Under the pieces are notes generated by a model. That model was given only the letters and a program-made list of their open reading frames with translations, had not been told where the DNA came from and made no database searches. The position numbers were made by a program, and so were the translations under genes. Of a stretch of 64,000 nucleotides of DNA, positions 2,089 through 36,714 are shown piece after piece (within the stretch, counting starts at the first letter, position 1; each line of letters begins with the position of its first letter). The stretch comes from Candidatus Riflebacteria bacterium HGW-Riflebacteria-1 (GTDB lineage: Bacteria; Muiribacteriota; Ozemobacteria; Ozemobacterales; Ozemobacteraceae), in NCBI GenBank assembly GCA_002839445.1, contig PGYB01000006.1:64001-128000 (forward strand), in the 5' to 3' direction.

Positions 2089-4365
2089 TCAGCGCCTGCT
2101 AAATGCCTGAAAAAGATTGGCATAGTCGTCTGTCCACAAACTGCATGCCCGTTCAACAACAATTTCTTCCCAGCGCTTGTAACGCTTTATCGCGGCAAAA
2201 GCCGCAGGGTCTGAGGCAACAGCGACCCATTGCGAGTTGAATATTTGTGCAAAATCATACCAGTCGTAACGTAATGAGTATCTTGTCGTGATGTCTCGCG
2301 AAATCAGGCAATAAAGGCCCAGTTCGTCGCAAATGCGTTTGATAACCGGTGCCAGGTCAAAATAGTTGTTGCTCACGTGAAAAAGCATCAAACCATCCGG
2401 TCTTGTTTTAGACTGATAGAGACGAAAAGCCTCAGTGGTCATGAGGTGAAGCGGAATTGCATCAGACGAATAGGCATCTAAAACCAGAAGATCGTATTTA
2501 TGATCAGGGATGCCCTGCAGGACAACCCGGGCATCGCCAACATGATTTTTCCAGGAAGCCTTTGATTTTGCAAGATAAGTAAACAACTTTGCGTCTTCTG
2601 CAATTTCAACCACTTTCGGGTCTATTTCAAAAAAGTCGAAGTGCTGCCATGGTCGACCATACCAGGCCAGAGTACCGACGCCAAGCCCCACTACTCCAAC
2701 CTGACGAAACCGACGCCCGACCAGCCCGGCTCTAAACGCAGCTCCTATTGGACTTTCCCTTGAATAATAAGCCAGGGGAAAAGCCCTCCGCATGCTGGTT
2801 ATGCGTCGCTCTATGCCATGCATTGTTGTACCATGCTGCAGAGTATAGAAAATATCTGTAAGTCCGGATACTGCCAAGTCCCGGTCGTTTTCTTTACCCT
2901 GGTTGGTTACGCGAGCGACCTTGAGCACGCCAAAAAAACTCCGTGCAGTAAACACAACATCTGAGGCCTTTTTCATCTGCACAAAAGGGCCGGCGGCGAG
3001 AAGAATGACTAAAGGAACCCAGACCAGTTTTTGCATGCGAAAAAAGGCATCGATAAACAGCAACCCGAGCGGCACGAGAAAAATGCCGCCCTGTTGCGCA
3101 AAACGCCTCATGTTGCCTTCATCCAGCCATGCCATTGCTACCATTGCCAGCAGAAACAGAGTATAGATCACGCACTTTCTGGCAAGCGAAAAATCCTGAA
3201 CTGTTAATTTCCGCGACATCGCAGAAGCGAGGATAACGGCAACAAAAAGCGTCAATAAGTATTCTGCCTGTGTCGCTAAAAGCATGGGGGCCAAAATACT
3301 GTTGAACAGGCCACCGAGAACTCCGCCAACTGACATCCAGACATAAAATGAATTCAAAAGCACGGGTGCGGGCCGGTCGTTGGCAAGACGCCCATGAAAA
3401 TACATACAGATCAGGAACATGGCGAGAAGATGTAATGGTATCGTCAGCCACATGCGTTCGACAAGCCCGAGATAATACATGATCATTGCCAGCAGAGCTG
3501 TCGGATACATATAGTTTTCCCATCTGATTTCTCGCCAGCGCGGGCTGCGCGCAAAAACCAGAATGAATGAAATCAGATAAAGTGATAATGGGATTACCCA
3601 CAGAAGCGGCAAAGAAGCAATGTCGGTCGATATATGCGTGGTAACAGCAAGCATGGCGCTGCATGGAACGAAGCCCATGAGGCACCAGAACAGCGACTGG
3701 CGCCAGGTTGACTGAGACTGAGCCGCTGCTGGTATGACGCTGTCTGAAATGTTCTGCGGTTGCCGGCGCTGACCGGTTTGCCAGAAGACAATGCAGCAGA
3801 TGGTTACCAGGCAGGTTTGCAGGACATAAAGAGCTGACCAGAGTTGGCGTTGAACGGTAAGCGTCATGAACGGCTCAATCAGCAGAGGGTAAGCCAGCAG
3901 AGCCAGCAGACTGCCGGTATTACTAGCTGCGTAGAGAAAATAAGGGTCGTGCGAATCTGTTTGCCCCGCCTGCGAATAATATCTCTGCAACAGCGGTGCA
4001 TTGGCTGAGATCATGAAAAACAAAAAACCGATCGAAGCAGACAATCTGGTCATAAGCCAGGTGACCGGATTATTGACGGCCGACCCGGCGGCACTGATAT
4101 CAATATGCAACGGCAGCAGCATAAAACCGCCGGTCATCAAAAGGATATGCAAGGTAGACTGGCGCTGACTGCCTAGATAGCGCAGGGCCTTTTCGGCATA
4201 GAGATATCCGCCCAGCAGCATCAACTGGAAAAAAAGCATGCAGGTAATCCAGACCGCTGGAGCACCGCCCATTGCTGGCAGCAGAAGCTTGCCAACCATT
4301 GGCTGAATCAAAAAAAGCAGGAAGGAGCCGACAAAGATACTCAATGAAAAAATTGCGGCTACCAT
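2089..4365 (-). CDS. Polytopic membrane protein fused to a spermidine-synthase-like (PABS fold) C-terminal domain
   Basis: About 480 hydrophobic N-terminal residues with many TM segments. C-terminal segment VVGLGVGTL...DLLVLDAYSSDAIP resembles the spermidine synthase methyltransferase fold. Confidence 0.65.
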   Translation of the reverse strand: MVAAIFSLSIFVGSFLLFLIQPMVGKLLLPAMGGAPAVWITCMLFFQLMLLGGYLYAEKALRYLGSQRQSTLHILLMTGGFMLLPLHIDISAAGSAVNNPVTWLMTRLSASIGFLFFMISANAPLLQRYYSQAGQTDSHDPYFLYAASNTGSLLALLAYPLLIEPFMTLTVQRQLWSALYVLQTCLVTICCIVFWQTGQRRQPQNISDSVIPAAAQSQSTWRQSLFWCLMGFVPCSAMLAVTTHISTDIASLPLLWVIPLSLYLISFILVFARSPRWREIRWENYMYPTALLAMIMYYLGLVERMWLTIPLHLLAMFLICMYFHGRLANDRPAPVLLNSFYVWMSVGGVLGGLFNSILAPMLLATQAEYLLTLFVAVILASAMSRKLTVQDFSLARKCVIYTLFLLAMVAMAWLDEGNMRRFAQQGGIFLVPLGLLFIDAFFRMQKLVWVPLVILLAAGPFVQMKKASDVVFTARSFFGVLKVARVTNQGKENDRDLAVSGLTDIFYTLQHGTTMHGIERRITSMRRAFPLAYYSRESPIGAAFRAGLVGRRFRQVGVVGLGVGTLAWYGRPWQHFDFFEIDPKVVEIAEDAKLFTYLAKSKASWKNHVGDARVVLQGIPDHKYDLLVLDAYSSDAIPLHLMTTEAFRLYQSKTRPDGLMLFHVSNNYFDLAPVIKRICDELGLYCLISRDITTRYSLRYDWYDFAQIFNSQWVAVASDPAAFAAIKRYKRWEEIVVERACSLWTDDYANLFQAFSRR

Positions 4366-4641
4366 TTTCAGACCATATTAATCTGAGAAAAAGTGTTTGA
4401 AGGAATCATGTCGGCAAGTCTATCACGATAAGCTGGAACCTTACTATCTGATTTATCAGATATATTTGAGATCGACCAGGTCCCCATAAATGCCAGCTCA
4501 GAATTGACAGAGAATAACTTGTAATTGCTCTCGAATCATTTGCTGTCCTGAAATTGACATTAACCATCCTTGATGATAGTCTCCCGGTTATGTCTGGGGA
4601 TTTATGGTGATCCGGGTCATCAAAATCAAAAAGGATAAAAT

Positions 4642-5199
4642 ATGAAAAATTTCTCGACCCTGTTTCTACTTGTTTGTCTGGTTTTCTGCTCATTTGTACC
4701 AGCTTTTTCGGCTGACGAATTCACCTACGAAGATGGCAAAGTTGATCTGGTATGTCCGGACGGCTGGAAACACACCATAACTGAAGAATCTCTCACCATG
4801 AGCTCTCCAGACGGTGCTGTTCAGTTCGTTTTTGAACTGCTCGAAGCAGACGATCTTGTGGCTGGCATTGAGCAGGCTCACAAAGAGATTAACGCTGCTG
4901 TTGGCGAAACCACTTTCGGCGAACCAGTTGAAGAAAAAATCAACGGTATGGATGCTTTGACGTTCACCGGCACCTGCCCCGCCAAAGGCCTCGAAATAAT
5001 ACTCTCAATCATAGACACTCCAGCCGACAACGCGCTCTGTGTTTATTACTTCGCCGCCAAAGCTGCAGAAGAAACTCACGCAGCCGGAATTGCCGAAGTC
5101 ATTAATGGCATTCGCCCGGCTGTCGTAGAAGCCGCCGGTGACGAAGAAACCGACGCCGACGCTGACGCTGGCGATGAAGAAGAAGGCGACGTAGAATAA
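4642..5199 (+). CDS. Secreted hypothetical protein with an acidic D/E-rich C-terminal tail
   Basis: Signal peptide MKNFSTLFLLVCLVFCSFVPAFSA. The C-terminus is rich in Asp and Glu. Confidence 0.55.
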   Translation: MKNFSTLFLLVCLVFCSFVPAFSADEFTYEDGKVDLVCPDGWKHTITEESLTMSSPDGAVQFVFELLEADDLVAGIEQAHKEINAAVGETTFGEPVEEKINGMDALTFTGTCPAKGLEIILSIIDTPADNALCVYYFAAKAAEETHAAGIAEVINGIRPAVVEAAGDEETDADADAGDEEEGDVE

Positions 5200-5236
5200 T
5201 TTCTGCTTTTCTTTTACGCTGCCCGGCAGGATTTTC

Positions 5237-5281
5237 AAAACAGGTGCTTGCTAAGATTCTTGGCAGGCGCCTGTTTTCATG
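5237..5281. terminator. Rho-independent terminator (bidirectional) between convergent genes
   Basis: 15-bp stem aaaacaggtgcttgc/gcaggcgcctgtttt with two G-U pairs and an 11-nt loop, flanked by an A-run and a T-run. Confidence 0.6.
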
Positions 5282-5343
5282 CTGGCAACTCTATTGTCTC
5301 AGCGAATCTGATTACTCAAAATTAGAGTATCGTACCTCTGCTG

Positions 5344-5745
5344 CTATATTTTTTGCAGGGATTCGAGCTTAAGTTCATCAATTCTGCTGAAGTGGTCTTT
5401 ATTGTTGGTTAATACTGATAAATTCATATACATGGCAGTTGCCGCAATCAGCAGATCCATGTCGTCCATTCTTTTGCCCGATGATTCAAGGCGGGCTTTG
5501 AGCTCGCCGAATACTTCCATTATGCCTTTGTTTATATCTATGACCGGAAACAGTTCGGCAACCCGATTGGCAGTTGCCATGTTTTTTTCGGGGTAACGCG
5601 ACTTTCGGGCTCCATAAACAAGCTCACCATAAGTGACAACAGAAATAAATTTTGGCAGATTCTTGTTTTCTAGCATCCACCGGTGTACCGTTTCATTCCC
5701 TTTAAGGCTGTAGATGATGATGTCGGTATCAATCAAAAATGCCAT
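5344..5745 (-). CDS. vapC: PIN-domain toxin (VapC family)
   Basis: MAFLIDTDIIIY... PIN signature with conserved acidic residues. It overlaps the upstream antitoxin gene. Confidence 0.8.
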   Translation of the reverse strand: MAFLIDTDIIIYSLKGNETVHRWMLENKNLPKFISVVTYGELVYGARKSRYPEKNMATANRVAELFPVIDINKGIMEVFGELKARLESSGKRMDDMDLLIAATAMYMNLSVLTNNKDHFSRIDELKLESLQKI

Positions 5746-6007
5746 TCTTCCCTCCAAAACGGGTTGAGCCGGTGCGGGCGCTTCTTATATCTGCAACAAT
5801 TTCTTCAGCGCTCTTCTCATCTTTCCAGCCGCCGGTGAGGGCAATAAACTCCTGGGTCGCGTTCGCCGAACCTGACTGCATCGAACTCAGGTAATCCTGA
5901 ATTATCGTTATGACTTCCTGACTGATAGAACGATTGTGCAGTTTGGCCGACCTCTTCAGAAAGTCGTATAACCGGTCATCTATATCTCTGACCTGCAATA
6001 TTGCCAT
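5729..6007 (-). CDS. vapB: Ribbon-helix-helix (Arc/MetJ-type) antitoxin partner of VapC
   Basis: MAILQVRDIDDRLYDFLKRSA... N-terminal RHH pattern. AGGAGG lies 7 nt upstream of ATG 6007. The gene overlaps the vapC start. Confidence 0.7.
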   Translation of the reverse strand: MAILQVRDIDDRLYDFLKRSAKLHNRSISQEVITIIQDYLSSMQSGSANATQEFIALTGGWKDEKSAEEIVADIRSARTGSTRFGGKNGIFD

Positions 6008-18293: not shown

Positions 18294-21200
18294 TCAACTG
18301 AATGAGCCGTAGGCATGGTCTATTTCGACCTCACCGGACTCGAGCACTCTTGAGTCTTCAATGTTGTGGTAAACCAGAAAGATGCCCTGGCGGCCGTCCA
18401 TAACGACACCGAGCTTGTTCGAAAGTCGGGAGTGGGTGAAATACTTGTGCCGCTTAACCACCGGCTGGCTGCGCAGCCAGTTCCAGTCTATAAAGCCCTC
18501 GCCGGAGTCCTGGCGAACAGAGAAATAACCGATACCCATGGTGGTGACATTATGAAAGAAATGTGAACCCATCGAGGGGTCAACCCTGAAGCCTTCGAGC
18601 GAATACTCAATTATTACCTTGGCATAAGAAGTCTGTGGCCAGGTCACCGGAATGCCGAGCCAGCGATCGCGAGTGCCCCAGCGTCCGGGTCCGAGAAGAA
18701 TGTATTTTCTGCCGGCTTCTTTGTGCTCAAGGTTAAACGCCTCTACTTCGCGTGCCATCTCTTCGGTCTGTGACTTGTCGAAAAGATCAGGATCGATCCA
18801 GACGATGTCGCTGATCTCGTCGATACGGCCGTTACCCATGCCAGAATCAGCGTAGAGCATCAGTTTGTCTTTTTCGATACAGCTCTTATCGATGTTGAAA
18901 TCTTCGCTTTCTCGCAGCATATGTTTGAGTTGCAACAGATAGAACACCGGCTTGTCAAGGTTCTCAGCATCAACGTCTACGGCAAATTCAATCTCTACAG
19001 GAGTTTCGAGAGCTTCTTCTGAAACATTAAGAATATGCTTGATCGTTTTTGCAAGAGGTATTGATTCATACTGCAGAATATTGGCAAAATTGATCACCCT
19101 TGGGCCGCGCATCTGAAGACCAACGTCAAGGCGTTGTTCAAGATGACTCCATGTCGATACTACCTCTTGCAGAGTTCCGTCGGCTTCGGCTGCCGAAATA
19201 TCGAGCTTGACCAGCGTTGCGTCTTCGCCATTAAACAGATCAACTGTGTTCTTTTCGAGGTCGAGAACGGTAAAACGGCGCTGCGAGTTTTTGACCAGCT
19301 CTTCCGGGGTGAGAATCTCTAGTTTGGGAAAAGTCGGGCAGAATCTGAACGATCTTTCGCCACCGACGACATTGCGCCCCAACCCCAGCACCAGCATGCC
19401 AACCCCATCTTCGGGTTGAATGTACGAAAACGGATAGTAGTTAAACGATTGACCGACACCCGAAATCTGCGGGTAAAAATTATGACCGTGCCGTCGCCCG
19501 ACGATCTGTTGAATAACAACCGCCATCTTTTCTTCTTCGATGTTGTAGTTGATCGCGTCGAAATATTCGCGGGCTTCTTTTGAATATACCGAGGCGTATA
19601 CCAGCTTTATTGCCTCTTCAAGCTGCTTGAGGCGCACTTCTGCATCAGGATGATTGTTCGGTATGAAAAAGGTTTCATAAAGGCCTGACATCGAATGCGA
19701 AACCGAGTCTTCCAGTACTCCTGATGAGCGTATGGCCAGCGGGTAAGTAACCTTCTGCAAGACAATGCGCAGGCGATTGAGTATTTTCTCAGACAGTCGG
19801 CTTGCAATGAAGCGGCGTTTGATCGTCGCGTAATCGCGCTCAGACGAGACAAAATCGGCAAGATCGTTGGTCGTGATAAAATTGGTGAATTCATCGACAC
19901 CGATTATAAAGGTCTCAGGTATTCTGACCACGATGTCTGATACCGCTTCAAGCATCGACGAATTATAAAGCAGATAATTCATAAAAGCGATGCCACGACC
20001 TTTGCCGCCAATGGCGCCCTCGGCCAGTTTGCAGATGTGATGCCGGTTGTCGCCAATAAATGATTTATCAAAAGAGATAACCTTGCCGCGGGTCTTCATT
20101 CTGAACACCCAGTTACCCATGTTGATCAAAAAGTCGCGCAGTGACTCGACTTCATCAAATTCAGCAACATGAATACGTGACACAACCTTGGCAATCTGCA
20201 CCTCTCCGCGCGCCAGCAGCCAGGTCGAAAAGTTATTGCGACTGGCATGATACTCAATCGACTCAGCCGGTACAATGCGCAGACAATTGCGAAAATCGCC
20301 CATAGTGCGCGCTCGCGTAATTTCCTGACCCTGTGCGTTTCTGAATACGAAATCGCCAAAACCGAGATTCCGGTAGAAAAATTTAGACAGGCGTTTGGAA
20401 AGGAATTGCGATTCTTTGTGAACAAACGAGGCTCCGATGCGGTTCGCAGCCGATTCAATTTCTGGTTCGGAAGACTGTAGCAGAATTGGCAGGTCTGGTT
20501 GCAGCTCTTTAAGTTTCTTGGCCAGTTTTATACCGGCTTTTTCATCCAATATCCCGTCTTTTTTGTATTTAACATCAGAAATAACGCAGAGCAGGTATTC
20601 TTTATAATGTTCATACTGCTTCATGGCTTCTTCAAAATTTGTTGCCAGGATGATCTTGGGGCGACAACGCATGCGTAATACTTTTTTGCTTTCTTCCTGA
20701 AGCTCTTCTTCGACAAGTTTGGTCGTCTGCCGGATCAGCTCAGAATATAGATGTGGCAGATAGCGTGAATAGTAGCGTATCGAGTCTTCAACAAGCAGTA
20801 TAATGCGCACCTGAGCGATTGCCGTGTCTTTATCTGCATTGCGCCGGTCTTCAATATATTTGATCATCGCCAGAAAGATTTCTGAGTTGCCGTTCCAGAC
20901 AAAAACGTTGTCGTAATGCAACCAGAGATCACCCCGGTTATCAAGCGACTCCAGGTCGGTGTTGTCGTTGAGTAAAAGCAGCACAGGCAGGTCAGGCCAG
21001 AGTTCGTGAATTTTCTGTCCGCAATTGATGGTATCAGTTTTGCTCAATCGGCTCAGCACAACCACGAGGTCGAACTTGCGGCGCTCAAGCATCTCGATCG
21101 CCTCATCGGCAGACGTTACGCTGGTAATGCGCGGCGCACTGGTCAGATTGAGATTAAAATATTCACCAAAGATTTTTTCAGCGAGAAGGCCGTCCTGTTC

Positions 21201-21329
21201 TAGGGAAAATGCATCGAATACAGTCGCTACCAGCAGCAGTTCGCGCACTTTAAAGCGCATCAGGTCGTGAAAAATTTCGCTGTCAGACTTGAATTTTTTA
21301 AAGACCTGCATCAGTTCATCGTTGTGCAT
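18294..21329 (-). CDS. Large protein with tandem receiver-like (REC) domains fused to a PEP/pyruvate-utilising (PPDK/PEP-synthase N-terminal, ATP-grasp) domain
   Basis: N-terminal CheY-like segments. Central KLAEGAIGGKGRGIAFMNYLL resembles the GGKGANLAEM nucleotide-binding motif. 1011 aa. Confidence 0.65.
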   Translation of the reverse strand: MHNDELMQVFKKFKSDSEIFHDLMRFKVRELLLVATVFDAFSLEQDGLLAEKIFGEYFNLNLTSAPRITSVTSADEAIEMLERRKFDLVVVLSRLSKTDTINCGQKIHELWPDLPVLLLLNDNTDLESLDNRGDLWLHYDNVFVWNGNSEIFLAMIKYIEDRRNADKDTAIAQVRIILLVEDSIRYYSRYLPHLYSELIRQTTKLVEEELQEESKKVLRMRCRPKIILATNFEEAMKQYEHYKEYLLCVISDVKYKKDGILDEKAGIKLAKKLKELQPDLPILLQSSEPEIESAANRIGASFVHKESQFLSKRLSKFFYRNLGFGDFVFRNAQGQEITRARTMGDFRNCLRIVPAESIEYHASRNNFSTWLLARGEVQIAKVVSRIHVAEFDEVESLRDFLINMGNWVFRMKTRGKVISFDKSFIGDNRHHICKLAEGAIGGKGRGIAFMNYLLYNSSMLEAVSDIVVRIPETFIIGVDEFTNFITTNDLADFVSSERDYATIKRRFIASRLSEKILNRLRIVLQKVTYPLAIRSSGVLEDSVSHSMSGLYETFFIPNNHPDAEVRLKQLEEAIKLVYASVYSKEAREYFDAINYNIEEEKMAVVIQQIVGRRHGHNFYPQISGVGQSFNYYPFSYIQPEDGVGMLVLGLGRNVVGGERSFRFCPTFPKLEILTPEELVKNSQRRFTVLDLEKNTVDLFNGEDATLVKLDISAAEADGTLQEVVSTWSHLEQRLDVGLQMRGPRVINFANILQYESIPLAKTIKHILNVSEEALETPVEIEFAVDVDAENLDKPVFYLLQLKHMLRESEDFNIDKSCIEKDKLMLYADSGMGNGRIDEISDIVWIDPDLFDKSQTEEMAREVEAFNLEHKEAGRKYILLGPGRWGTRDRWLGIPVTWPQTSYAKVIIEYSLEGFRVDPSMGSHFFHNVTTMGIGYFSVRQDSGEGFIDWNWLRSQPVVKRHKYFTHSRLSNKLGVVMDGRQGIFLVYHNIEDSRVLESGEVEIDHAYGSFS

Positions 21330-23595: not shown

Positions 23596-25455
23596 ATGCG
23601 CAAAACAACTCTATGCATAATTCTGCTATTTGCCCAGATATGCTGCAGCAATCTCTCAGCCCAGCAACCCGAAATTCCTGTGCCCGGCGACTTCAGAGAT
23701 GAACGTATCTATTCGGTTATAACCAGTCGTTTTTATGATGCTGATGCAGAAAACAACTACTATAACTATGAACGCATCGACAAGGGCGACCCGCATTATC
23801 GTGGCGATTTTAAAGGGTTAGCGCAGAAGCTCGACTACATAAAAGATCTCGGTTTTACAGCAATCTGCATCACGCCTCCGGTTGAAAATCGTGGCGGTTT
23901 GGATTTTATGGGCCTTAACGCCTACGACTGGGAAACCTTCGAGCCGCGCCTGACCTCAAGTGATTTTGCTTATGGCGATCTCATCAGATCTGCCCACAGC
24001 ATTGGCCTCAAGGTCATTCAAACATTGGTGGTAAACCACTGTTCGAATTTTGGTATCCGCAACCACTACTTCATTCCACGACTGCCGCTTAAATTCTACC
24101 GTGGCCCGCTAAAACCGACCTGGCCATATGTCTATAATTTCGGTGACTACAAACATGAGTTTCGCATGAATAACGACAACCCCTGCGCTCCCGACTGGTT
24201 CAAGGATTTTCGCTTTCGTGACCCGTGGGGCGCCGGACCTCTCAAAGACCCGATCACGGGTAAAACTTTCCCAGCAGAAAATCAGCATCCCGAACGCTTC
24301 TTTGGCACTGATGAAAAATATCTACAGTCAGACTGGTTTCACCGTGAAGGTTGGATAAAGGCAGATGAAAACCTGACGGTAGCGCGCGTGCAGCGTGCTC
24401 ATCTTGACCAGAACAGCATTGACCTCGCCAGCGATAACTGGCATATAAAGCGGTTTTTTGCAAAGGTAGTCAAGAAATACATCGACCTCGGTGTCGACGG
24501 TTTGCGCATTCAATATGCCCGCAATTCAGACCGCCAGGATCTTGTACACATGGTCGAACTCTGGCGCAAGTTCAAGCCTGAACTCTATGTGTTTGCCGAT
24601 GTCGCGCCGGCTCTGGATGGCTTTGGCAAGCTGACCGGCGTTGAGCCAACTGAGCTGGTTCCCTGGTGGTATACCCGCAACACACCTAACCCGAACGAAC
24701 CTGATCTGGCTGGCAACTCCGGTATCGCGGTCATGGATTACCCGCTTTTTAAAAGTTTTGCAGCAAATCTTTCTTCTGGTCATTTCAATGGCGTCGGCAA
24801 TATCATCAAAAATGACTGGTTGTATGCTGATCCCAATCAGCTGGTAACCTTTTTTCACAACTATGACAGCGGGCCAGAAACCGGCAATTTAACAAGGTTT
24901 TCGAGCGACCAATGGAAAGCAGCCTGCGCATACAACCTGCTCTGGACCCTCAGAGGCGTGCCGATGCTGCTGATGGGCGAAGAAATTGAATTCATGAAAG
25001 GCATGCCGCAGGTCTGCGTGCTGCCGACCGATGTGCTCTCGCGCACAGGTAAAGCTTATTTCGGCGATAATCTCAGTGACGGCACGATCGCGCAAACAGC
25101 TTCACATGTGCTGGCACAACATATCAGGCGCCTTAACCAGATTCGCGCCGCGGTTCCAGCGCTCAGTCGCGGTCAGCTCGAAAGCGGCAATGAGTTTGTC
25201 TCAGGCATCAGTTTTATCAGAAATTACAATAACGCAGAGAGTTATGCGGTAGTCGGGCTTTCGGCCTTTATCGATCAGGATATCACGGTAACCCGTGTTT
25301 TGCCTGGCGACTACAGCGATGCGGTGACCGGACAGACACAAAGTGTTGCTACCAGCACGCGCACGCTCAGCTTCAGCGTCAAAGGCAATTCCGCTGGCAT
25401 CTGGGTGCGCAATGGCCCTGGCAAAATCGGCGTCGACGGCGAATATCTGCGCTGA
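23596..25455 (+). CDS. Secreted GH13 (alpha-amylase family) protein, possibly non-catalytic
   Basis: Signal peptide. GDFKGLAQKLDYIKDLGFTAICITP and LVVNH (region I). Region II reads VDGLRIQYARN instead of GFRLDAAKH. Region IV is FFHNYD. Confidence 0.7.
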   Translation: MRKTTLCIILLFAQICCSNLSAQQPEIPVPGDFRDERIYSVITSRFYDADAENNYYNYERIDKGDPHYRGDFKGLAQKLDYIKDLGFTAICITPPVENRGGLDFMGLNAYDWETFEPRLTSSDFAYGDLIRSAHSIGLKVIQTLVVNHCSNFGIRNHYFIPRLPLKFYRGPLKPTWPYVYNFGDYKHEFRMNNDNPCAPDWFKDFRFRDPWGAGPLKDPITGKTFPAENQHPERFFGTDEKYLQSDWFHREGWIKADENLTVARVQRAHLDQNSIDLASDNWHIKRFFAKVVKKYIDLGVDGLRIQYARNSDRQDLVHMVELWRKFKPELYVFADVAPALDGFGKLTGVEPTELVPWWYTRNTPNPNEPDLAGNSGIAVMDYPLFKSFAANLSSGHFNGVGNIIKNDWLYADPNQLVTFFHNYDSGPETGNLTRFSSDQWKAACAYNLLWTLRGVPMLLMGEEIEFMKGMPQVCVLPTDVLSRTGKAYFGDNLSDGTIAQTASHVLAQHIRRLNQIRAAVPALSRGQLESGNEFVSGISFIRNYNNAESYAVVGLSAFIDQDITVTRVLPGDYSDAVTGQTQSVATSTRTLSFSVKGNSAGIWVRNGPGKIGVDGEYLR

Positions 25456-25464
25456 GACGCCGAG

Positions 25465-25755
25465 TCAGTCTATACGTGGTTTAAGTTTGACCAGGGTGGC
25501 GCCCCAGTGCCCGGCGTCATGACCGGCAGGTTGCCAGGAGTCGACGATTTCTAGACGCGCCAGTGCGGCTTCAACAGTTCTTCTCAGGTTGCCGATTCCC
25601 TTGCCATGCACAATGCGCACGCTGTATATGTGTTTTTCGCGGCATGACGCAAGATAATCAGCGACAACTGCCGCTGCTTCACGAGGTTGAAAAGTGTGCA
25701 GGTCGAGAGTGCCATCAAGAGGCAACTCTACCGGATCAGGCGGCAGGTTTGTCAT
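25465..25755 (-). CDS. Smr-domain protein
   Basis: LDLHTF...EAAAVVADYL...VRIVHGKGIGNLR Smr signature. Confidence 0.7.
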   Translation of the reverse strand: MTNLPPDPVELPLDGTLDLHTFQPREAAAVVADYLASCREKHIYSVRIVHGKGIGNLRRTVEAALARLEIVDSWQPAGHDAGHWGATLVKLKPRID

Positions 25756-26149
25756 CAATCAGGCTGGCGCGCGCCGGAAGAAGCTCGAAAGGCGTTACGA
25801 TTTTTGCGCCTGCCACGCCGGGCACAATGATCTCGGCTTTTGGGCAGTAGTCGAGAAAGAGCTCGCGACACTTGCCACAGGGTGAAATTACTTCGCCAAT
25901 ACGGTTGACTACTACGAGAGCTTCAATGTCGGTAACGCCTTCTTCGGCGGCATTGGCGAGAGCGACCGCTTCAGCGCAGATTTCGGCACCGGCTATCGAG
26001 GCTTTCAGTTGAAGTCCGGTAAAAATTTTGCCATCTTTCGATTTGACGGCGGCGGCAAAATGATGCCGGTTTTCTTTAAATCTTTGTGAAATCAGCTTTT
26101 TAGCTGTCTCAATGAGATAGAAATGATTCTTTTTCAGCTGGTTAAGCAT
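25736..26149 (-). CDS. Cytidine/deoxycytidylate deaminase family protein
   Basis: CAEAVA and PCGKCRE zinc-binding motifs. Confidence 0.75.
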   Translation of the reverse strand: MLNQLKKNHFYLIETAKKLISQRFKENRHHFAAAVKSKDGKIFTGLQLKASIAGAEICAEAVALANAAEEGVTDIEALVVVNRIGEVISPCGKCRELFLDYCPKAEIIVPGVAGAKIVTPFELLPARASLIDDKPAA

Positions 26150-26164
26150 TTTTATCCTCTTTTC

Positions 26165-26587
26165 TTAAAACTCGCCTTTCAGTTCTTTGGCGAAGAATTC
26201 GCGCTCATCAGCGCCGTAACACACGAGACCGATGCGAACCGAGGTTTTGACCGGCTTGCTGCCCCATGGCCAGAAGGCGCAATACATGCACGCCTGTTCG
26301 CCGATTATCTTGCGGTAAAGCGTCTGTTCTTTGCGAGTTCCACCAACGCCGCGAACAAAACGGTCAAAATAATTCTTGAAGAATGCGCCTTCACCAGCGG
26401 GTTTGTACGGTTTGCCGAAGTATTCTTCAACTTCTGCCGCCAGAGCCAGTATCAGATTAGTGTCTGCCACGCCGCAGTATAACAACGGCTCATCGACATC
26501 GTGATTGGGCTTGATGTTGTATTTTTTTTCGATAATATCGATCAGTTTGAGCGTTTTGCGAATCTCGGGCAGGTAAGTCTTCATAGC
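26165..26587 (-). CDS. Hypothetical protein
   Basis: AGAGGTG RBS before ATG 26587 (MKTYLPEIRK...). The longer form back to 26806 would overlap the upstream gene. Confidence 0.5.
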   Translation of the reverse strand, partial: AMKTYLPEIRKTLKLIDIIEKKYNIKPNHDVDEPLLYCGVADTNLILALAAEVEEYFGKPYKPAGEGAFFKNYFDRFVRGVGGTRKEQTLYRKIIGEQACMYCAFWPWGSKPVKTSVRIGLVCYGADEREFFAKELKGEF

Positions 26588-26645
26588 ACCTCTTGTATTT
26601 AAATGCAGTATATCTGAAAAGCAAAATTTGACGCAATTAAAAAAG

Positions 26646-27470
26646 TTACTTGCGCACAACCTCTTTGCGGGCGGCCACCATGGCCTTAAGGCGATCCGGG
26701 TCCAGCGGGTTTTCCCAGAAACCATCATATTTAAGGCTTGAGCCGATGATCCAGCCGTCGGCGCGTGCGTAATCAGCAGCGTTCTCAGCGGTAATGCCCG
26801 AGCCAATCATGATTGGAATACGGCCAGCTGTGCGCGCGCGCTTTAAATCGTCTTTAGCTGCTGCCTTGCCGGTTGCGCTGCCGGTTATGATTACACCATC
26901 AATCCCGAAAAAGTCAGCGCCATGTACCCAGTCCTCAAGCGTCAGATCAGCAGTCACCGCGTGCGCCGAATGCTTTTTCTGAATGTCGGTCCAGATTCTG
27001 ATGCGGCCGGCGCCAAGTCTGGCCCGTTCACGCAGCAATTCACCAGCACAGGCTTCGATCCAGCCCTCGTCCGCAACATGACCAAAGACACAGCCCTCAG
27101 CTCTGATAAATTCGCAGCCAGAAATGTGCGCGACCGCAAGCGCTTCAATGTTAGCGCCGGCAAGAATCTGAATGCCAACCGGGAAATGCGTGCCAACGCT
27201 GCGTTTTACATCACAGGCGACGCGGGTCATCGCGGCAACGATCTCCGGTCCAACCGCACCCTTGAGGTAAGGCCTATCGTGCATGTTTTCGAGAATAATG
27301 CCATCAAAACCAGCGCTCTGCAGCATGCTTGCTTCGGCCACGGCAGTCGCGCTGATTTTTTCCATAGAATCTGTATTAAAAGGCGTTCCTGGCAACGCTT
27401 TCACATGTACCATTCCAAAAAGAGCCGGCATCGGCATGCGGGTGGTGACATCAAGAAGGGGCTTCATCAA
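26646..27470 (-). CDS. BtpA/SgcQ-family (beta/alpha-barrel) protein
   Basis: DGIILENMHDRPY...GIQILAGAN...IMIGSGIT pattern typical of the BtpA family. Confidence 0.7.
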   Translation of the reverse strand: MMKPLLDVTTRMPMPALFGMVHVKALPGTPFNTDSMEKISATAVAEASMLQSAGFDGIILENMHDRPYLKGAVGPEIVAAMTRVACDVKRSVGTHFPVGIQILAGANIEALAVAHISGCEFIRAEGCVFGHVADEGWIEACAGELLRERARLGAGRIRIWTDIQKKHSAHAVTADLTLEDWVHGADFFGIDGVIITGSATGKAAAKDDLKRARTAGRIPIMIGSGITAENAADYARADGWIIGSSLKYDGFWENPLDPDRLKAMVAARKEVVRK

Positions 27471-27477
27471 GATCTCC

Positions 27478-28455
27478 TTAGCTGAACGCGAATATCAGAA
27501 TGTTTCCGACAATCAATATGAATACATACCAGAAACGGCAGATTTTATCGAGATATATTGCCATATCAAAGCGGCGGCGCTTGGCGTAATTGTTGTTAAC
27601 CACGGTCTGCACCAGCGCGAGAAAAATGACGACGTAAAAGAGCATGAAAATTTTGTCTGACATCAGCAGATAGCCTACAGAAGGCAGCGCGTCAGCCTGG
27701 GAATTGTGCAGCGCGATTGCCGAGAGAAGTGCGGTGATGCAGATACCGCACTGCGCCTCGAACTCGCTGGCGTTTATGTAGAATACCACGTAAGCCATGC
27801 CAGCGATGATGAACAGCGGCAAAATGAACTTGATCAGATGCGGCAGAAACAGTCGTTTCAGGTTGACTCTGAATGTGAGGCGCGAATAACTCGAAGTTTT
27901 TTTTGAGCCAAGCCCAAAGTCGGTCTTGTAGTGGTGAGCGTCAATGTCGCACGCCGCGCCGTTGCGTTGCCAGTCTGGCACCAGCATTTCCGGCTCGAGC
28001 CAGAGGTTGTAGTCTGCCGAACTTTCCGTGTCAGGGGTGAATAGTATCTTTTCAACGGTGTTTTCAGCATCTTCGATCACTATAGGAAGACTTTGCCGGT
28101 CAAATGGATATGACTGCAACCTGAAATGGCCGCGAAACCTTCCTTTAATGCGTTGCGACCACTGTTTTTTGCCCGACGCACTCGTGGCACTGGCAATTGG
28201 CGTGGCGCTCTCGATGTTGCCATTCATGAATTCGATGTTTTCTGGCACCCAGCTGCTTTCGGGAGGCGCCTTATACCAGATGTAAAAATCAGCGAAGAAT
28301 TCGCTCTCTTTAACATCGAGATGCGCGATGTCGAGAATATACAAGCCAATTTCGATCTTGGTGGGTTGCGTCTCAGTCGCGTAAACAGACGGCAAGACCA
28401 GCAGTGTCATGAATAAAACGGCAAACAGAGTAATCTTCAGCTTGTGAATTAGCAT
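27478..28455 (-). CDS. Prokaryotic pentameric ligand-gated ion channel (pLGIC, GLIC/ELIC-like) homologue
   Basis: Signal peptide, then about 200 aa of beta-rich extracellular domain with SYPFDRQSLPIVIED (the FPFD loop motif, no cysteines). This is followed by four hydrophobic helices M1-M4 and a post-M2 ALPSVGYL motif (compare GLIC SLPKVSYV). Confidence 0.75.
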   Translation of the reverse strand: MLIHKLKITLFAVLFMTLLVLPSVYATETQPTKIEIGLYILDIAHLDVKESEFFADFYIWYKAPPESSWVPENIEFMNGNIESATPIASATSASGKKQWSQRIKGRFRGHFRLQSYPFDRQSLPIVIEDAENTVEKILFTPDTESSADYNLWLEPEMLVPDWQRNGAACDIDAHHYKTDFGLGSKKTSSYSRLTFRVNLKRLFLPHLIKFILPLFIIAGMAYVVFYINASEFEAQCGICITALLSAIALHNSQADALPSVGYLLMSDKIFMLFYVVIFLALVQTVVNNNYAKRRRFDMAIYLDKICRFWYVFILIVGNILIFAFS

Positions 28456-28759
28456 GCTTTAAATCTAGCAAAAAATCCAACATTTTTAAACAAAATCATT
28501 CTGGGACAGCACCCTTTGGGAAAAGCGCACTGGCGAAGTTTGCACATCGCAATCGCATCAAACCGTCATCCTGCACGCAGTCGCAGGATCCAGAATGACA
28601 GAGAGAAGTCAGCAGAATGACGAATAGAAGGCATTAGAATGCTCAAACAAGGATTCGTCATCACTGCGCCCAGTCACAAAACATCTATTATACTTTTCAT
28701 AAAAGATTCGTTCACAGCAAAAGACTAGACACAGAGTTGCCGTTGCAATTGCCAGCAGC

Positions 28760-28831
28760 AGCGATTACGATTGCGATTACGCGCACGAAAAAGTAAACCC
28801 CAGAACAATGCAGAAGGTATTTACGAACGAA
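28760..28831 (+). repeat. Dispersed intergenic repeat, copy B (CGATTA hexamer tract plus conserved 17-mer AGGTATTTACGAACGAA)
   Basis: cagcgattacgattgcgattacgcgcacgaaaaagtaaa...caatgcagaaggtatttacgaacgaa. It is about 75% identical to copy C at 49989..50068 in the same orientation and abuts the esterase stop codon. Confidence 0.6.
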
Positions 28832-28832
28832 G

Positions 28833-29516
28833 CTACTGGCTTAGGGCTTCGAGAACCCAGGTGAGCGCTTCTTCGCGAATTTCTTCGGGCGCGGTGCGAT
28901 GGCCGCCCTCGAACTCATACCACTTTATCTGCCAGTCGAGGCTTTTCAAAAACTTGCGGTCCTCTTGCATCAGCTTGTAATTAAAGTCGGTCGGACTGGT
29001 TAAAAAGGCACAGACCTTGCCGCGCGGGTAAGTGTCTTTGTGCTTGAGACTGTTTTCATGAATATACCCGACGCTGGTGATTACCGCCGCAACTGTATCT
29101 GGATGAAAAAAAGAAAACAGATGCGAAGCCATGCCGCCGCCAGAAGTTCCCACCGCTATGATGCGGTCAGGCCTGATCGAGTATTGCACTGCGACGCGTT
29201 CGTGAATGAGGTTGCGCAGGCGATTGAGGTAGTTCGGTATATCCATGCCGTTCTTGATAATTTTTGACGCCAGAATAATGCATTTATGGTTGTCGGCGTG
29301 CCCGCGCCAGGTAGCGACAGTGTCTTTGGCATTGGCCGAAGGCGAAAAGCCGACGATCAGCGGATACCTTTCTCCAGCCGCAAGACCTTCGGGAACATAA
29401 ATCAGGTATTCATTTTCTTCAAAAGTGCCGCTGGTAACCGTTTCGTCAGCGCTGCAGATACCAGGCAGATAAGTCAGCAGAAAAACAACAGCTAACAGAA
29501 TATTGCAGATTCGCAT
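28833..29516 (-). CDS. Secreted alpha/beta-hydrolase (esterase/depolymerase-like)
   Basis: GTSGGG nucleophile elbow (GxSxG). Signal peptide starts at MRICNILLAVVFLL. GAGGT RBS lies before ATG 29516. Confidence 0.65.
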   Translation of the reverse strand: MRICNILLAVVFLLTYLPGICSADETVTSGTFEENEYLIYVPEGLAAGERYPLIVGFSPSANAKDTVATWRGHADNHKCIILASKIIKNGMDIPNYLNRLRNLIHERVAVQYSIRPDRIIAVGTSGGGMASHLFSFFHPDTVAAVITSVGYIHENSLKHKDTYPRGKVCAFLTSPTDFNYKLMQEDRKFLKSLDWQIKWYEFEGGHRTAPEEIREEALTWVLEALSQ

Positions 29517-29553
29517 ATTTACCTCTAACTGACTACGCCCAATAACGATGTTG

Positions 29554-29796
29554 TCAGTGCATAAGATACAAGGCACCCAGAAGCAGAGCAAGCACAATAA
29601 AGCTAACCAGCAGCAGTGAAAGCGCACCCAGCTTTTCGAGCAGGAACTCAGAATACGTCTGTCCATCGTCAGGAGAGAGCTTGAAGATAACTTTTATCGT
29701 GTCAATAATTACCGAGAAATTGGCGCCAAGAGCTCCGGCCATCGAGTCTTCAGCCTCATGACGTGAGCCCCCGGGATTTTTACGTCTAAGAAACAT
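29554..29796 (-). CDS. Small protein with a C-terminal TM helix, hypothetical
   Basis: 80-codon ORF with C-terminal LGALSLLLVSFIVLALLLGALYL. Confidence 0.35.
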   Translation of the reverse strand: MFLRRKNPGGSRHEAEDSMAGALGANFSVIIDTIKVIFKLSPDDGQTYSEFLLEKLGALSLLLVSFIVLALLLGALYLMH

Positions 29797-34692: not shown

Positions 34693-36714
34693 TTATTCTC
34701 CTGCAGACGGCGGGTAATGTTCATCCCACCAGCGTATTTCCTGGGGTCCCGGGTCGAGCCTGGTCTTTTTTTTGCGCGCATCCTGAAGTATGCGGTCTTT
34801 CTCTTCGTCATACCACCACAACGACGCTATTGATCGCTGATCGCCGGTTTTGTCGAGAAACTGCGGAGGCATGCTGAACTTGTTCCAGTAAAGAATGCGC
34901 GTGCTGGCCAGAAACCAGCCGAGCGCGTAGAGATGCTCGCGGGTGACGATGCCGTCAATTTCACGCACAGCCTTCATGCGCTCTTTAGGGTCAAACATCG
35001 TCGGGTATTGTTCGCAGATCTCATCGACACGGGCGTTCTTAAAGCCCCAGATGTTATTGTTGTTTTTTTTGTCAGCAAACTTCGAGTGCACCGAGCTTTC
35101 GGGGTTAGGGAAAAGAAGGCCGCCGTAGGCTCTTGAACTCAGCTCAAACGTGCGTTCGCCAACTTCTTTGATATCGGTGGCCCAGGTAACCTGCTTAAGA
35201 TTGAGTTTGATGCCAATGTCGCGCAGGTCTTCCTGAAAAATGGTGAGAATGCGCTCTGAGCTCTTCTGAACATAGTTGATAGAAAGTTCAAAGCGTTTGC
35301 CATCCTTGACCAGCCACCCGTCAGAGTCGCGATCCTTCTGCAGCCAGCCGGCTGCTTCGAGCAGCTCAACCGCCTTATCAGGGTCATACCTGGTTTTGGG
35401 ATTATCAGGATTCGCGTAGGGCGAGTTCGGGTAGAACGAGTCGAGATACTCATACTCGTTGAAAAACAGCTTATCCATCATCTTTTCGCGGTTATAAAGA
35501 TGCGCGAAGGCCTGGCGCACACGGATGTCATTAAATGGCGGCTTGCGCATGTTGAAGGCTATGCCGGAAGTCCCGATCGGGCGATGCGTGAAAACCTTGC
35601 GTTTCTGAATGTAGCCGTAGGCAAGCTCGGCCAGCATGGCCGGAATGAACTCCTGATGCCACTCGCGCGCCACGTTAATGGCGATCCAGTCGAGTTCGCC
35701 CTTCTTGAAGCGCAGTTTAACCAGATTTTCGTCTGAAATGAAGATAAAGTGCAGGCGGTCGAAGTTGTAGTAGCCGGTGTTTTTTTCAGCGTCTTTCTGC
35801 CACCAGTCCTGACGGCGGTTGAGAATAATCTCTTCGTTGACTTTCGAACTCTCGAAAGTATAGGGGCCTGATCCTGGCATGAGCTTATTCTGATACTCGC
35901 TCAAATAGCCCTTGCCATCGAGTTTTTCGATTATGTGACCGGGAAGAATGGTCATAAAGCCGATCGACATGAAGGCACGCCAGTTGAGCAGCTTTGATTT
36001 GATCATTACCACGCTCTGCGACAGTGCAACCGGTTTTTCGTATTTGTTCCAGTAGTCTATCGAGAAGGGGTCTTCGATGCCGGGGTCAGTGTAAAGTTCC
36101 CAGCTGCGAACGACATCTTCGGCAACTACCGGTTGGCCATCAGACCAGCGCGCGTTTTCATCGATCTCGAAAAAGAAACAGACCTTGTCGTCGGCCATAG
36201 CCCAGCGCCTGGCCAGGTTTGGCACATAATCAAAGGTTACCGGGTCGAGATCGAGCAGACTTTCGTAACACAAACCGGTCAACATGCTGTTAAAAGTCGA
36301 ATTGGCATTCTTGCCGACAGTTCTTAAAGACGGAGGGTAAGAGGTTTCAGCGTATTTGAGGGTGCCGCCTTTCTTTGCCTCACGACTGCCGAAACCCTTG
36401 AATTCGCTGTTGGTTTGCCAGTTCAGAGAAACAAGCATGGTTATGACTTCAGGGCTGACATTGTCATAAATTTTGTCGCGCAGTCCTGCTGCAGCCAGAA
36501 GCGCCTGGCTGACTTCTGCCGACGGGATATTCTCGGGCAGCAACGAATGGATAACACCTTCGGGTTCGACTGCCGGCGTGGTGGTCGCGACTTCTTCTGT
36601 CTGCGCCTGCAGCGTGCATGTAAACGAAAGCAGCATTAAAAATAGTGCAAAAATCAGATGTCTGGTTTTCAAGAAAGCACTCCTTCCGTGTCGACGGTCC
36701 TTGTATGTTTTCAT
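34693..36714 (-). CDS. ABC transporter substrate-binding protein, family 5 (OppA/YejA-like)
   Basis: About 670 aa with an N-terminal signal peptide. It sits at the head of the permease and ATPase operon. Confidence 0.75.
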   Translation of the reverse strand: MKTYKDRRHGRSAFLKTRHLIFALFLMLLSFTCTLQAQTEEVATTTPAVEPEGVIHSLLPENIPSAEVSQALLAAAGLRDKIYDNVSPEVITMLVSLNWQTNSEFKGFGSREAKKGGTLKYAETSYPPSLRTVGKNANSTFNSMLTGLCYESLLDLDPVTFDYVPNLARRWAMADDKVCFFFEIDENARWSDGQPVVAEDVVRSWELYTDPGIEDPFSIDYWNKYEKPVALSQSVVMIKSKLLNWRAFMSIGFMTILPGHIIEKLDGKGYLSEYQNKLMPGSGPYTFESSKVNEEIILNRRQDWWQKDAEKNTGYYNFDRLHFIFISDENLVKLRFKKGELDWIAINVAREWHQEFIPAMLAELAYGYIQKRKVFTHRPIGTSGIAFNMRKPPFNDIRVRQAFAHLYNREKMMDKLFFNEYEYLDSFYPNSPYANPDNPKTRYDPDKAVELLEAAGWLQKDRDSDGWLVKDGKRFELSINYVQKSSERILTIFQEDLRDIGIKLNLKQVTWATDIKEVGERTFELSSRAYGGLLFPNPESSVHSKFADKKNNNNIWGFKNARVDEICEQYPTMFDPKERMKAVREIDGIVTREHLYALGWFLASTRILYWNKFSMPPQFLDKTGDQRSIASLWWYDEEKDRILQDARKKKTRLDPGPQEIRWWDEHYPPSAGE

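Follow-up and report, generated by a model that had tools for sequence, protein, structure and literature searches.

Does an open reading frame (ORF) that the databases know only as a hypothetical protein code for a ligand-gated ion channel of the pentameric kind (pLGIC), and if so, which ions would it pass, what would open it, and what should be made of the genes around it? The ORF lies at 27478-28455 on the minus strand of a 64,000-nucleotide (nt) stretch of contig PGYB01000006.1 from Candidatus Riflebacteria bacterium HGW-Riflebacteria-1, a metagenome-assembled genome (MAG). That whole stretch is called the window here; all coordinates refer to it unless a related locus is named, and every feature located by window coordinates below is on the minus strand. 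The ORF begins with ATG and specifies 325 amino acids (aa), and a 100% identical protein in the databases is named only "hypothetical protein". A sequence-only reading of the window, made without database searches, had placed a bacterial pLGIC at exactly the coordinates that the ORF list gives. To our knowledge only a handful of prokaryotic pLGICs have been characterised, namely GLIC, ELIC, sTeLIC and DeCLIC. A biological role is known for no prokaryotic pLGIC (PMC4795631), and Tasneem et al. predicted that these proteins form homopentameric chemoreceptor channels, noting fusions with periplasmic-binding proteins and operons (PMC549065). The explanation that we consider likely for the locus as a whole is a pLGIC, by inference a cation channel with a small amine as its presumptive agonist, whose gene heads an operon with a gene of the BtpA family.

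Identity of the channel gene

Profile searches, sequence matches in the PDB, an AlphaFold2 model and fold matches all agree with the proposed pLGIC identity. In a phmmer comparison of the channel with all PDB chains, the best GLIC match had E=4e-12, and chimeras of GLIC with the gamma-aminobutyric acid (GABA) receptor GABA-A reached 1.7e-13. A family profile, built from an alignment (A1) of 64 family members of which 50 are of the Riflebacteria type, matches ELIC (7e-33) and GLIC (5e-32) along practically the full length, and with matches at such E-values the features of the channel are no chance pattern. The monomer model computed by AlphaFold2 on the 64-member alignment is confident (pLDDT 91.1, pTM 0.76), and Foldseek against the PDB puts GLIC on top (E 8e-20, TM-score 0.72-0.76 over ~316 columns). 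Profiles, model and two fold searches place the channel beside GLIC, ELIC, sTeLIC and DeCLIC, the comparison that the sequence-only reading had suggested, and beside animal receptors. Pfam, phmmer against the PDB and the family profile all return matches. Of the two Pfam families that had been expected, Neur_chan_memb is matched (36.7 against a gathering score of 28.1) and Neur_chan_LBD falls just short of its own (22.5 bits against 26); a precomputed match to Neur_chan_LBD (PF02931) exists for many of the close homologues. The NCBIfam subfamilies LGIC_1 (NF033918; 52.4 against a cut-off of 500) and LIC (TIGR00860; 60.3 against 280) were both missed, by so wide a difference that homology is claimed and a curated subfamily is not assigned.

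Seven positions conserved across the superfamily were listed by Jaiteh et al. in their Table 1 (PMC4795631). All of them are present in the channel, as mapped by phmmer and MAFFT (Y116, P117, D119, W162, R201, P213 and P258), and all are invariant in 50/50 Riflebacteria sequences. Among them W162 is the core beta9 aromatic residue (GLIC W160), P213 the proline that kinks M1 (GLIC P204) and P258 the proline between M2 and M3 (GLIC P247). The gene thus almost certainly encodes a genuine pLGIC subunit, and this subunit would most likely assemble into a homopentamer. One might take the bare annotation and the Neur_chan_LBD score below its cut-off as marks of a decayed, non-conducting relic or of an annotation error. 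This has practically no probability and is as good as ruled out by the conservation pattern, as the gating and pore residues are all invariant across the 50 sequences. Moreover, the frame is intact and of full length, there are 325-aa orthologues at 73-87% identity, the model is confident, and the GC content is like that of the rest of the window (0.488 in the channel gene, 0.503 in the window, with the GC content at third codon positions close to that of the neighbours). No sign of recent horizontal transfer was seen in the base composition.

Architecture of the channel

The precursor begins with a predicted Sec signal peptide (28378-28455, residues 1-26; MLIHKLKITLFAVLFMTLLVLPSVYA, cut before TETQ). 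A signal peptide had been claimed earlier, and both the hydropathy scan, which peaks over residues 1-28 and delimits a hydrophobic segment at 1-26, and a model helix at residues 2-19, ahead of the first beta strand, bear it out; K5 and K7 lie in the n-region and V-Y-A precedes the predicted cut. The predicted periplasmic ligand-binding beta-sandwich follows (27847-28377, residues 27-203), in which the model has ten strands between residues 32 and 201. At ~177 residues this exported region is shorter than the ~200 that had been claimed for it, and in the MAFFT alignment it is without 19-23 residues that GLIC and ELIC have between beta2 and the WxP motif.

The Pro-loop, the equivalent of the Cys-loop, is read directly as YPFDRQ at residues 116-121 (28093-28110). 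Y116-P117-F118-D119 aligns to Y119-P120-F121-D122 of GLIC and to F119-P120-F121-D122 of ELIC; the Tyr, Pro and Asp are invariant in 50/50 Riflebacteria sequences, and the Pro and Asp in 64/64 of the family. A (F/Y)PxD motif at the beta6-beta7 loop tip is the mark of the superfamily, and its Pro is the sole absolutely conserved residue (PMC4795631). The loop had been described as free of cysteines, and rightly so: the only Cys residues of the protein are 169, 236, 239 and 306. None flanks the loop within residues 105-125, and the strict metazoan disulfide pair is therefore missing, which makes the channel a Cys-less Pro-loop receptor, as GLIC and ELIC are.

Behind the exported domain the model has four transmembrane helices, and hydropathy gives four hydrophobic segments within the last 125 residues, so that the topology anticipated earlier (signal peptide, exported beta-sandwich, four C-terminal helices) is what both methods found. 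The pre-M1 arginine R201 and the M1 helix (residues 203-226, with the kink at P213) occupy 27778-27849; R201 aligns to GLIC R192 and ELIC R198, and both R201 and P213 are invariant in 64/64 sequences. The M2 helix (27688-27762, residues 232-256) lines the pore and runs into L257-P258-S259-V260, which is the post-M2 LPxV motif of the sequence-only reading in the form LPSV. In M3 (27580-27672, residues 262-292) Y262 and Y274 are invariant and D267 nearly so, and M4 (27484-27570, residues 296-324) closes the protein. The loop between M3 and M4 is short (model coil 293-295), and the segment 286-300 (VNNNYAKRRRFDMAI) carries a net charge of +3, which by the positive-inside rule agrees with the expected topology.

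Among the known channels, the closest overall is GLIC, the proton-gated channel of Gloeobacter violaceus (PDB 3eam, 4hfi), which is the best match both in sequence and in Foldseek. The two have in common that there is no extra N-terminal domain, no Cys-loop cysteines and only a very short M3-M4 loop, and they share the YPFD Pro-loop and a Glu at position -2' of the pore (GLIC E222). They are only ~18% identical, however, and differ in the ~19 residues between beta2 and WxP that the channel does not have and in its longer loop C. Identity to sTeLIC (alkaline-pH-gated) and DeCLIC (Ca2+-modulated) is 16-17%, and the N-terminal extension of DeCLIC (the chain in 6v4a has 589 residues) is absent from the channel. 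Compared with the animal GABA-A beta and GluCl alpha subunits, the channel is without the Cys-loop disulfide, the long M3-M4 domain and the N-terminal helix, and their pore has a P-A-R motif where the channel has its -2' Glu. The channel is set apart from all four characterised bacterial channels by its shorter extracellular domain, by Gln at 0' and by its BtpA operon.

Pore and ion selectivity

The prime numbering of M2 was anchored in the alignments on the P-A-R motif of GABA-A alpha1 and on E229-R230 of ELIC. That M2 lines the pore, as had been claimed, fits the model helix at 232-256 and the presence of the 9' leucine gate, L244. Across the 50 Riflebacteria sequences this leucine is invariant, and so are 0' (Q235), 6' (T241) and 13' (A248). 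The acidic positions at the two mouths are nearly so, with Glu at -2' (E233) in 49/50 sequences and Asp or Glu at 20' (D255) in 47/50. Position -1' (A234) holds Thr, Ala or Ser, 2' (G237) is mostly Gly or Ala, and 16' (N251) mostly Ile or Asn. ELIC likewise has a Glu ring at its cytoplasmic mouth and a Leu at 9'; its charge ring (E229), however, is at -1' and not at -2', it has Arg at 0' where the channel has Gln, and its 16' position is Phe246 where the channel family has Asn or Ile. The E-A-Q pore mouth of the channel appears to be closest to that of GLIC, E-A-N, in a comparison made outside the alignments.

The Glu ring formed by ELIC E229 at the cytoplasmic mouth is required for cation selectivity (PMC3119659). 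The anion-type P-A-R motif is absent from the M2 of the channel, and from this absence together with the -2' Glu ring and the 20' Asp at the pore mouths we infer cation selectivity, which the channel probably has.

A candidate agonist pocket

ELIC, an amine- and GABA-gated cation channel of Dickeya/Erwinia (PDB 2vl0), is the known channel whose pocket is closest to that of the channel described here. In ELIC, Glu77 and Glu131 stand on either side of the agonist's amine and the complementary face is lined by Tyr38 and Asn103; alanine mutants of Glu77, Glu131, Phe133, Tyr174, Phe187 and Ile79 are unresponsive (PMC3119659). The pocket was mapped by phmmer and independently by a MAFFT alignment in which the family was set beside ELIC and the extracellular domain of GLIC, and the two mappings are the same. 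An alignment to ELIC by profile hidden Markov model (HMM) was rejected at loop A, where it breaks the WxP and EFxN motifs, which are intact in the GLIC alignment of that output; phmmer and MAFFT keep both motifs in register and place ELIC there as they place GLIC.

The candidate pocket residues are Y39, Y58, W60, E75, M77, E128, Y176, F180, G181 and Y190, and the ELIC positions mapped to the pocket are F19, Y38, V40, E77, I79, E131, Y174 and F187. Three of these residues are kept in 64/64 sequences of the family: E128 (ELIC Glu131, GLIC I131), Y58 (ELIC Tyr38, GLIC F42) and Y176 (ELIC Tyr174, GLIC F174). E75 (ELIC Glu77, GLIC R77) is kept in 60/64 and Y190 (ELIC Phe187, GLIC E181) in 59/64, and M77 (ELIC Ile79, GLIC V79) is Met in 51/64. 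At A130 (ELIC Phe133, GLIC R133) 41/64 sequences have Ala or Ser, and S100 (ELIC Asn103, GLIC L103) is Ser in 33/50 Riflebacteria sequences and variable elsewhere. Three of the four members of the ELIC aromatic cage (Tyr38, Phe133, Tyr174, Phe187) are thus matched, by Y58, Y176 and Y190, and loop C, longer than in GLIC, has the invariant F180-G181 at its tip. On this mapping, the orthosteric pocket is ELIC/GABA-like and not GLIC-like.

Because the amine-coordinating Glu pair and three of the four aromatics are invariant or nearly so, a small primary amine suggests itself as the agonist at the orthosteric site. This assignment is tentative, and we would put its chances somewhat short of even. 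According to this proposal, an amine derived from an amino acid, a diamine or a GABA-like compound would bind at the subunit interface, where the carboxylates of E75 and E128 would hold its ammonium group and Y58, Y176 and Y190, with Y39, W60 and F180, would surround it. Binding would shut loop C, and the gate would open through the residues of the gating interface, which are intact (Y116-P117-F118-D119, R201, D47 of the beta1-beta2 loop, and L257-P258 between M2 and M3). Cations would then pass a pore with -2' Glu and 20' Asp rings.

If pH opened the channel, through protons as in GLIC or alkaline conditions as in sTeLIC, the conserved acidic residues would instead be titratable sensors. The main proton sensor of GLIC is Glu35 in the beta1-beta2 loop (PMC5760087). 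In the MAFFT alignment E35 falls on S51 of the channel; the conserved E50 and E52 on either side adjoin the E35 position and leave room for an alignment shift of one residue. The acidic character of the exported domain (25 Asp and Glu against 20 Lys and Arg) and the likeness of the E-A-Q pore mouth to the E-A-N of GLIC also speak for a pH sensor. It is nevertheless unlikely that the channel is gated in this way, as the ELIC/GABA-type residues are kept across several phyla, which is expected of a ligand site, and GLIC itself has R77, I131, F174 and E181 where the channel has E75, E128, Y176 and Y190. Furthermore, the activation of GLIC by protons bypasses the orthosteric site (PMC5760087).

The BtpA gene downstream

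A gene of the BtpA/SgcQ family, encoding 273 aa, lies directly downstream of the channel gene at 26646-27467 (PF03437 8.7e-63; TIGR00259 195 bits against 153). As it passes TIGR00259 and falls short of the photosystem-I equivalog NF045918 (163 against 400), it is a member of the BtpA family and no photosystem-I orthologue. At the coupling junction (27465-27480) the channel's stop codon TAA (27478-27480) is followed immediately by GGAG (27474-27477), a 6-nt spacer and the ATG of BtpA (27465-27467), so that the gap between the genes is 10 nt and the Shine-Dalgarno sequence is fused to the stop. None of the neighbours had seemed an obvious partner in the sequence-only reading. In the operon sense the junction overturns this, since its stop/Shine-Dalgarno arrangement is conserved in 17/17 distinct related loci, in the form T(A/G)A-GGAG-N(5-9)-ATG with gaps of 9-13 nt. 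Wherever the channel is at least 61% identical to that of the window (17 distinct loci and the window), BtpA is directly downstream, and in a scan of 25300-29000 no terminator or promoter signal above chance was found between channel and BtpA. Judged by this arrangement, co-expression of the channel and BtpA is well supported and their translation is probably coupled. The channel gene would thereby head an operon and be translated together with a cytoplasmic TIM-barrel protein.

Does the link go further than co-expression? Across the linked loci the channel has diverged to 61% identity and BtpA to 70%. Across these loci, what lies upstream changes (an esterase-like, hybrid histidine kinase or HDOD gene), as does what comes after BtpA (the 139-aa gene unk139, an insertion of 2.3 kb or a gene for spermine synthase), and the junction is kept in all 17 loci and the window. 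It is this persistence amid changing neighbours that argues against the view that the adjacency is mere inherited gene order, with a shared transcript and independent proteins, a view to which we nonetheless give about an even chance. It is favoured by a neighbour-joining tree, in which the linked channels make up a single clade within the unlinked ones of Riflebacteria and from which it follows that the arrangement arose once, in one fusion event. The sister Riflebacteria channels are without BtpA (11 loci at 48-58% channel identity), and one lineage of them has CorA. Conversely, no pLGIC was found within 5 kb of four BtpA loci at 57-65% identity, of which three belong to Riflebacteria or Ozemobacteraceae and the fourth lies outside the phylum; the link is therefore restricted to a clade and not general. 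The BtpA/SgcQ family is huge, with more than 7,400 matches below 1e-20, and mostly occurs without pLGICs, and a search of the literature library found no papers linking pLGICs with BtpA or with Riflebacteria.

A functional link between the channel and BtpA beyond co-expression is, in light of the above, doubtful. One may speculate about a dedicated two-protein unit, in which BtpA would be made in a fixed ratio to the channel and would serve as an assembly or stabilising factor or as a cytoplasmic effector; this is less probable still. An assembly or stabilising role would recall RIC-3 and NACHO, the chaperones that animal nicotinic receptors need. It would also parallel the role of cyanobacterial BtpA, for which the binding and stabilisation of GluTR is the current view (PMC11449065). 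Such a unit, if true, would provide the first accessory protein for a prokaryotic pLGIC, the first function for a non-photosynthetic BtpA and a handle on the role of bacterial pLGICs in vivo. The operon partner of ELIC differs, being an amino-acid decarboxylase, and it is from this neighbour that the natural ligand of ELIC was guessed (PMC3119659).

Several observations weigh against the overall explanation of an amine-gated cation channel heading a BtpA operon. The Neur_chan_LBD score of the protein is just under the Pfam gathering score. Identity to the characterised channels is only 17-23%, so that the residue mapping carries a risk of misalignment, and at loop A the profile HMM places ELIC otherwise than phmmer and MAFFT do. 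In the pore, 0' is Gln, unlike the majority of pLGICs, 79% of which have Arg or Lys there (PMC4795631). In the pocket, the cation-pi residue Phe133 of ELIC is replaced by Ala or Ser and Asn103 by Ser, and the pocket is therefore no copy of that of ELIC. Finally, the BtpA link has a single origin and is absent both from the sister channels and from other BtpAs.

Two further arrangements around these genes were seen in related loci. In L023 (1612-4371) and L024 (198-2612) the channel gene, at 55-57% identity and of a divergent Riflebacteria lineage, is followed directly by the gene of a CorA-type Mg2+ channel (PF01544, 7.5e-56) and then by an Smr gene, and these loci are without BtpA, unk139 and the deaminase gene described below. 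The window itself has no CorA gene and no second copy of the channel. In L089 (4216-5792), which is from outside the Riflebacteria, two BtpA paralogues stand in tandem, the stop of one overlapping the start of the next (35% identical to each other's query match).

Solute-binding proteins and channel fusions

Upstream of the channel, the minus strand carries SBP_bac_5 (34693-36714), followed by a pair of permease genes and a pair of ATPase genes; after them come the esterase-like gene and then the channel. The transporter is of the Opp type, of the ATP-binding cassette (ABC) kind, and its periplasmic solute-binding protein (SBP) could in principle present a peptide or other solute to the channel, or gate it. 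The common strand order of the transporter genes, esterase-like gene and channel fits this idea, and 9 related loci have OppF upstream of the channel. Moreover, relatives at ~35% identity are channels fused to a C-terminal SBP_bac_5 or to an N-terminal NMT1_3 or Peripla_BP_6, and for bacterial pLGICs fusions with periplasmic-binding proteins (PBPs) and PBP-II operons were reported by Tasneem et al. (PMC549065). The resemblance of the fused SBP_bac_5 to the SBP of the window is at the family level, however (26% identity over 200 aa, E 2e-6). Between transporter and channel lie a 377-nt spacer and the esterase-like gene, the insertions that relatives have there are a histidine kinase gene, a gene of GH31 or an HDOD gene on the opposite strand, and in the unfused channel the orthosteric pocket is itself strongly conserved. 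It is therefore quite improbable that the SBP acts on the channel. A "Rosetta-stone" link between channel and SBP, drawn from the fusions, was set aside for the same 26% family-level resemblance and kept only within this low-probability alternative.

The fusions are worth describing in their own right. In representatives P0225 and P0237 (815-870 aa), which are ~33-37% identical pLGICs, an SBP_bac_5 domain of ~500 aa follows M4 at the C-terminus, and ~25 further representatives of 790-920 aa are listed beside them. As the C-terminus of M4 is periplasmic, a C-terminal SBP_bac_5 is topologically sensible. The fusions described by Tasneem et al. (2004) are all N-terminal, and their paper never uses the term "C-terminal" (PMC549065). 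In P0196 (641 aa) and P0204 (701 aa) an NMT1_3 or Peripla_BP_6 domain precedes the pLGIC core, and these two represent the PBP-fusion theme that is already known.

Distribution and significance

A scan of one genome per species found 348 relatives. The 26 loci at 48-78% identity are nearly all labelled as Riflebacteria, Rifleibacterium or Ozemobacteraceae or are unclassified MAGs, and one bears the label Erysipelotrichia; the remaining listed loci, at ~30% identity, are mostly from Saprospiraceae, and a few belong to Sericytochromatia, Planctomycetota and Actinomycetota. In two genomes there is a pair of paralogous channels. An exhaustive HMMER search of 1.84 billion metagenome representatives, clustered at 50% identity, found 4,202 clusters at E<=1e-3, of which 1,638 reach 1e-10 or below and 110 reach 1e-30 or below. 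The gene is thus widespread within the phylum and the superfamily numerous in metagenomes. The earlier description of pLGICs as sporadic in bacteria holds across bacteria but not within Riflebacteria, where at least 26 species-level genomes have the channel, and with 4,202 representative clusters another bacterial pLGIC is no rarity.

The channel adds another uncharacterised member to a large family already known, the understanding of which it leaves unchanged, and its one unusual trait is the conserved, closely coupled BtpA gene. With thousands of similar homologues in metagenomes, its value is incremental unless the BtpA link is functional. The conserved, coupled cytoplasmic BtpA may hint at the physiology of the channel, and the proposed ligand, a primary amine that two invariant glutamates would hold, is testable. 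As a compact precursor of 325 aa with an unusually short extracellular domain and a confident model, the channel may also be a useful structural subject.

Other genes of the neighbourhood

In most of the linked loci BtpA is followed by a gene for a 139-aa protein (26165-26584 in the window; 67-91% identity), which has no match in Pfam or NCBIfam. The ORF list shows here a 213-aa ORF with a TTG start (26165-26806) that overlaps BtpA; the ATG start of the 139-aa version agrees with the genes called in relatives, for instance with the 139-aa gene in L001. Next come a cytidine-deaminase-like gene of 137 aa (25736-26149; dCMP_cyt_deam_1 1.1e-09; PRK06848 105 against a cut-off of 131) and, as the last of the gene string, an Smr-domain gene of 97 aa (25465-25758; Pfam Smr 5.4e-19), which overlaps the deaminase gene by 23 nt. 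The cytidine deaminase and BtpA-family neighbours named in the sequence-only reading are thus confirmed by their Pfam matches. The esterase named with them is present as a gene (28833-29666), and the esterase call itself is weak: there is no Pfam match, and the NCBIfam matches to PHB-depolymerase families are weak and below threshold (38.6 bits against 150). This ORF probably starts too early as listed, since an internal Met precedes a segment that resembles a signal peptide and the gene of the relatives has 268 aa.

The 377-nt spacer upstream of the channel (28456-28832) is presumed to be the promoter region. Its minus strand has no ORF of at least 60 aa. A riboswitch or other regulatory RNA in this leader was considered and rejected, as Rfam gave no match for the spacer and the operon apart from a chance microRNA match (E 0.94). 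Scans of 25300-29000 for sigma-70 promoters and intrinsic terminators gave counts equal to the shuffled expectation and are uninformative. Where the window has only this spacer, three related loci have between the esterase-like gene and the channel a gene for a hybrid histidine kinase of 748-757 aa with an ABC_sub_bind sensor domain (L001, at 3592-5865, where the channel is 74% identical to that of the window, and also L002 and L008).

The most divergent linked locus (L003, 8271-12459, and L004, 3212-7799) has after BtpA a gene for a protein of 646-779 aa with a spermine/spermidine-synthase domain, and the gene of an MscS channel on the opposite strand. That a polyamine enzyme should neighbour a channel whose pocket is of the amine type is suggestive, but this is a single case. 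Further upstream in the window, the minus strand carries genes for a HAD hydrolase and a prolyl oligopeptidase. Elsewhere in the window, at 18294-21329, there is a gene for a 1011-aa protein that combines PPDK_N, the AMP/ATP-binding domain of pyruvate phosphate dikinase, with a weak match to a response-regulator receiver domain, an architecture that looks unusual.

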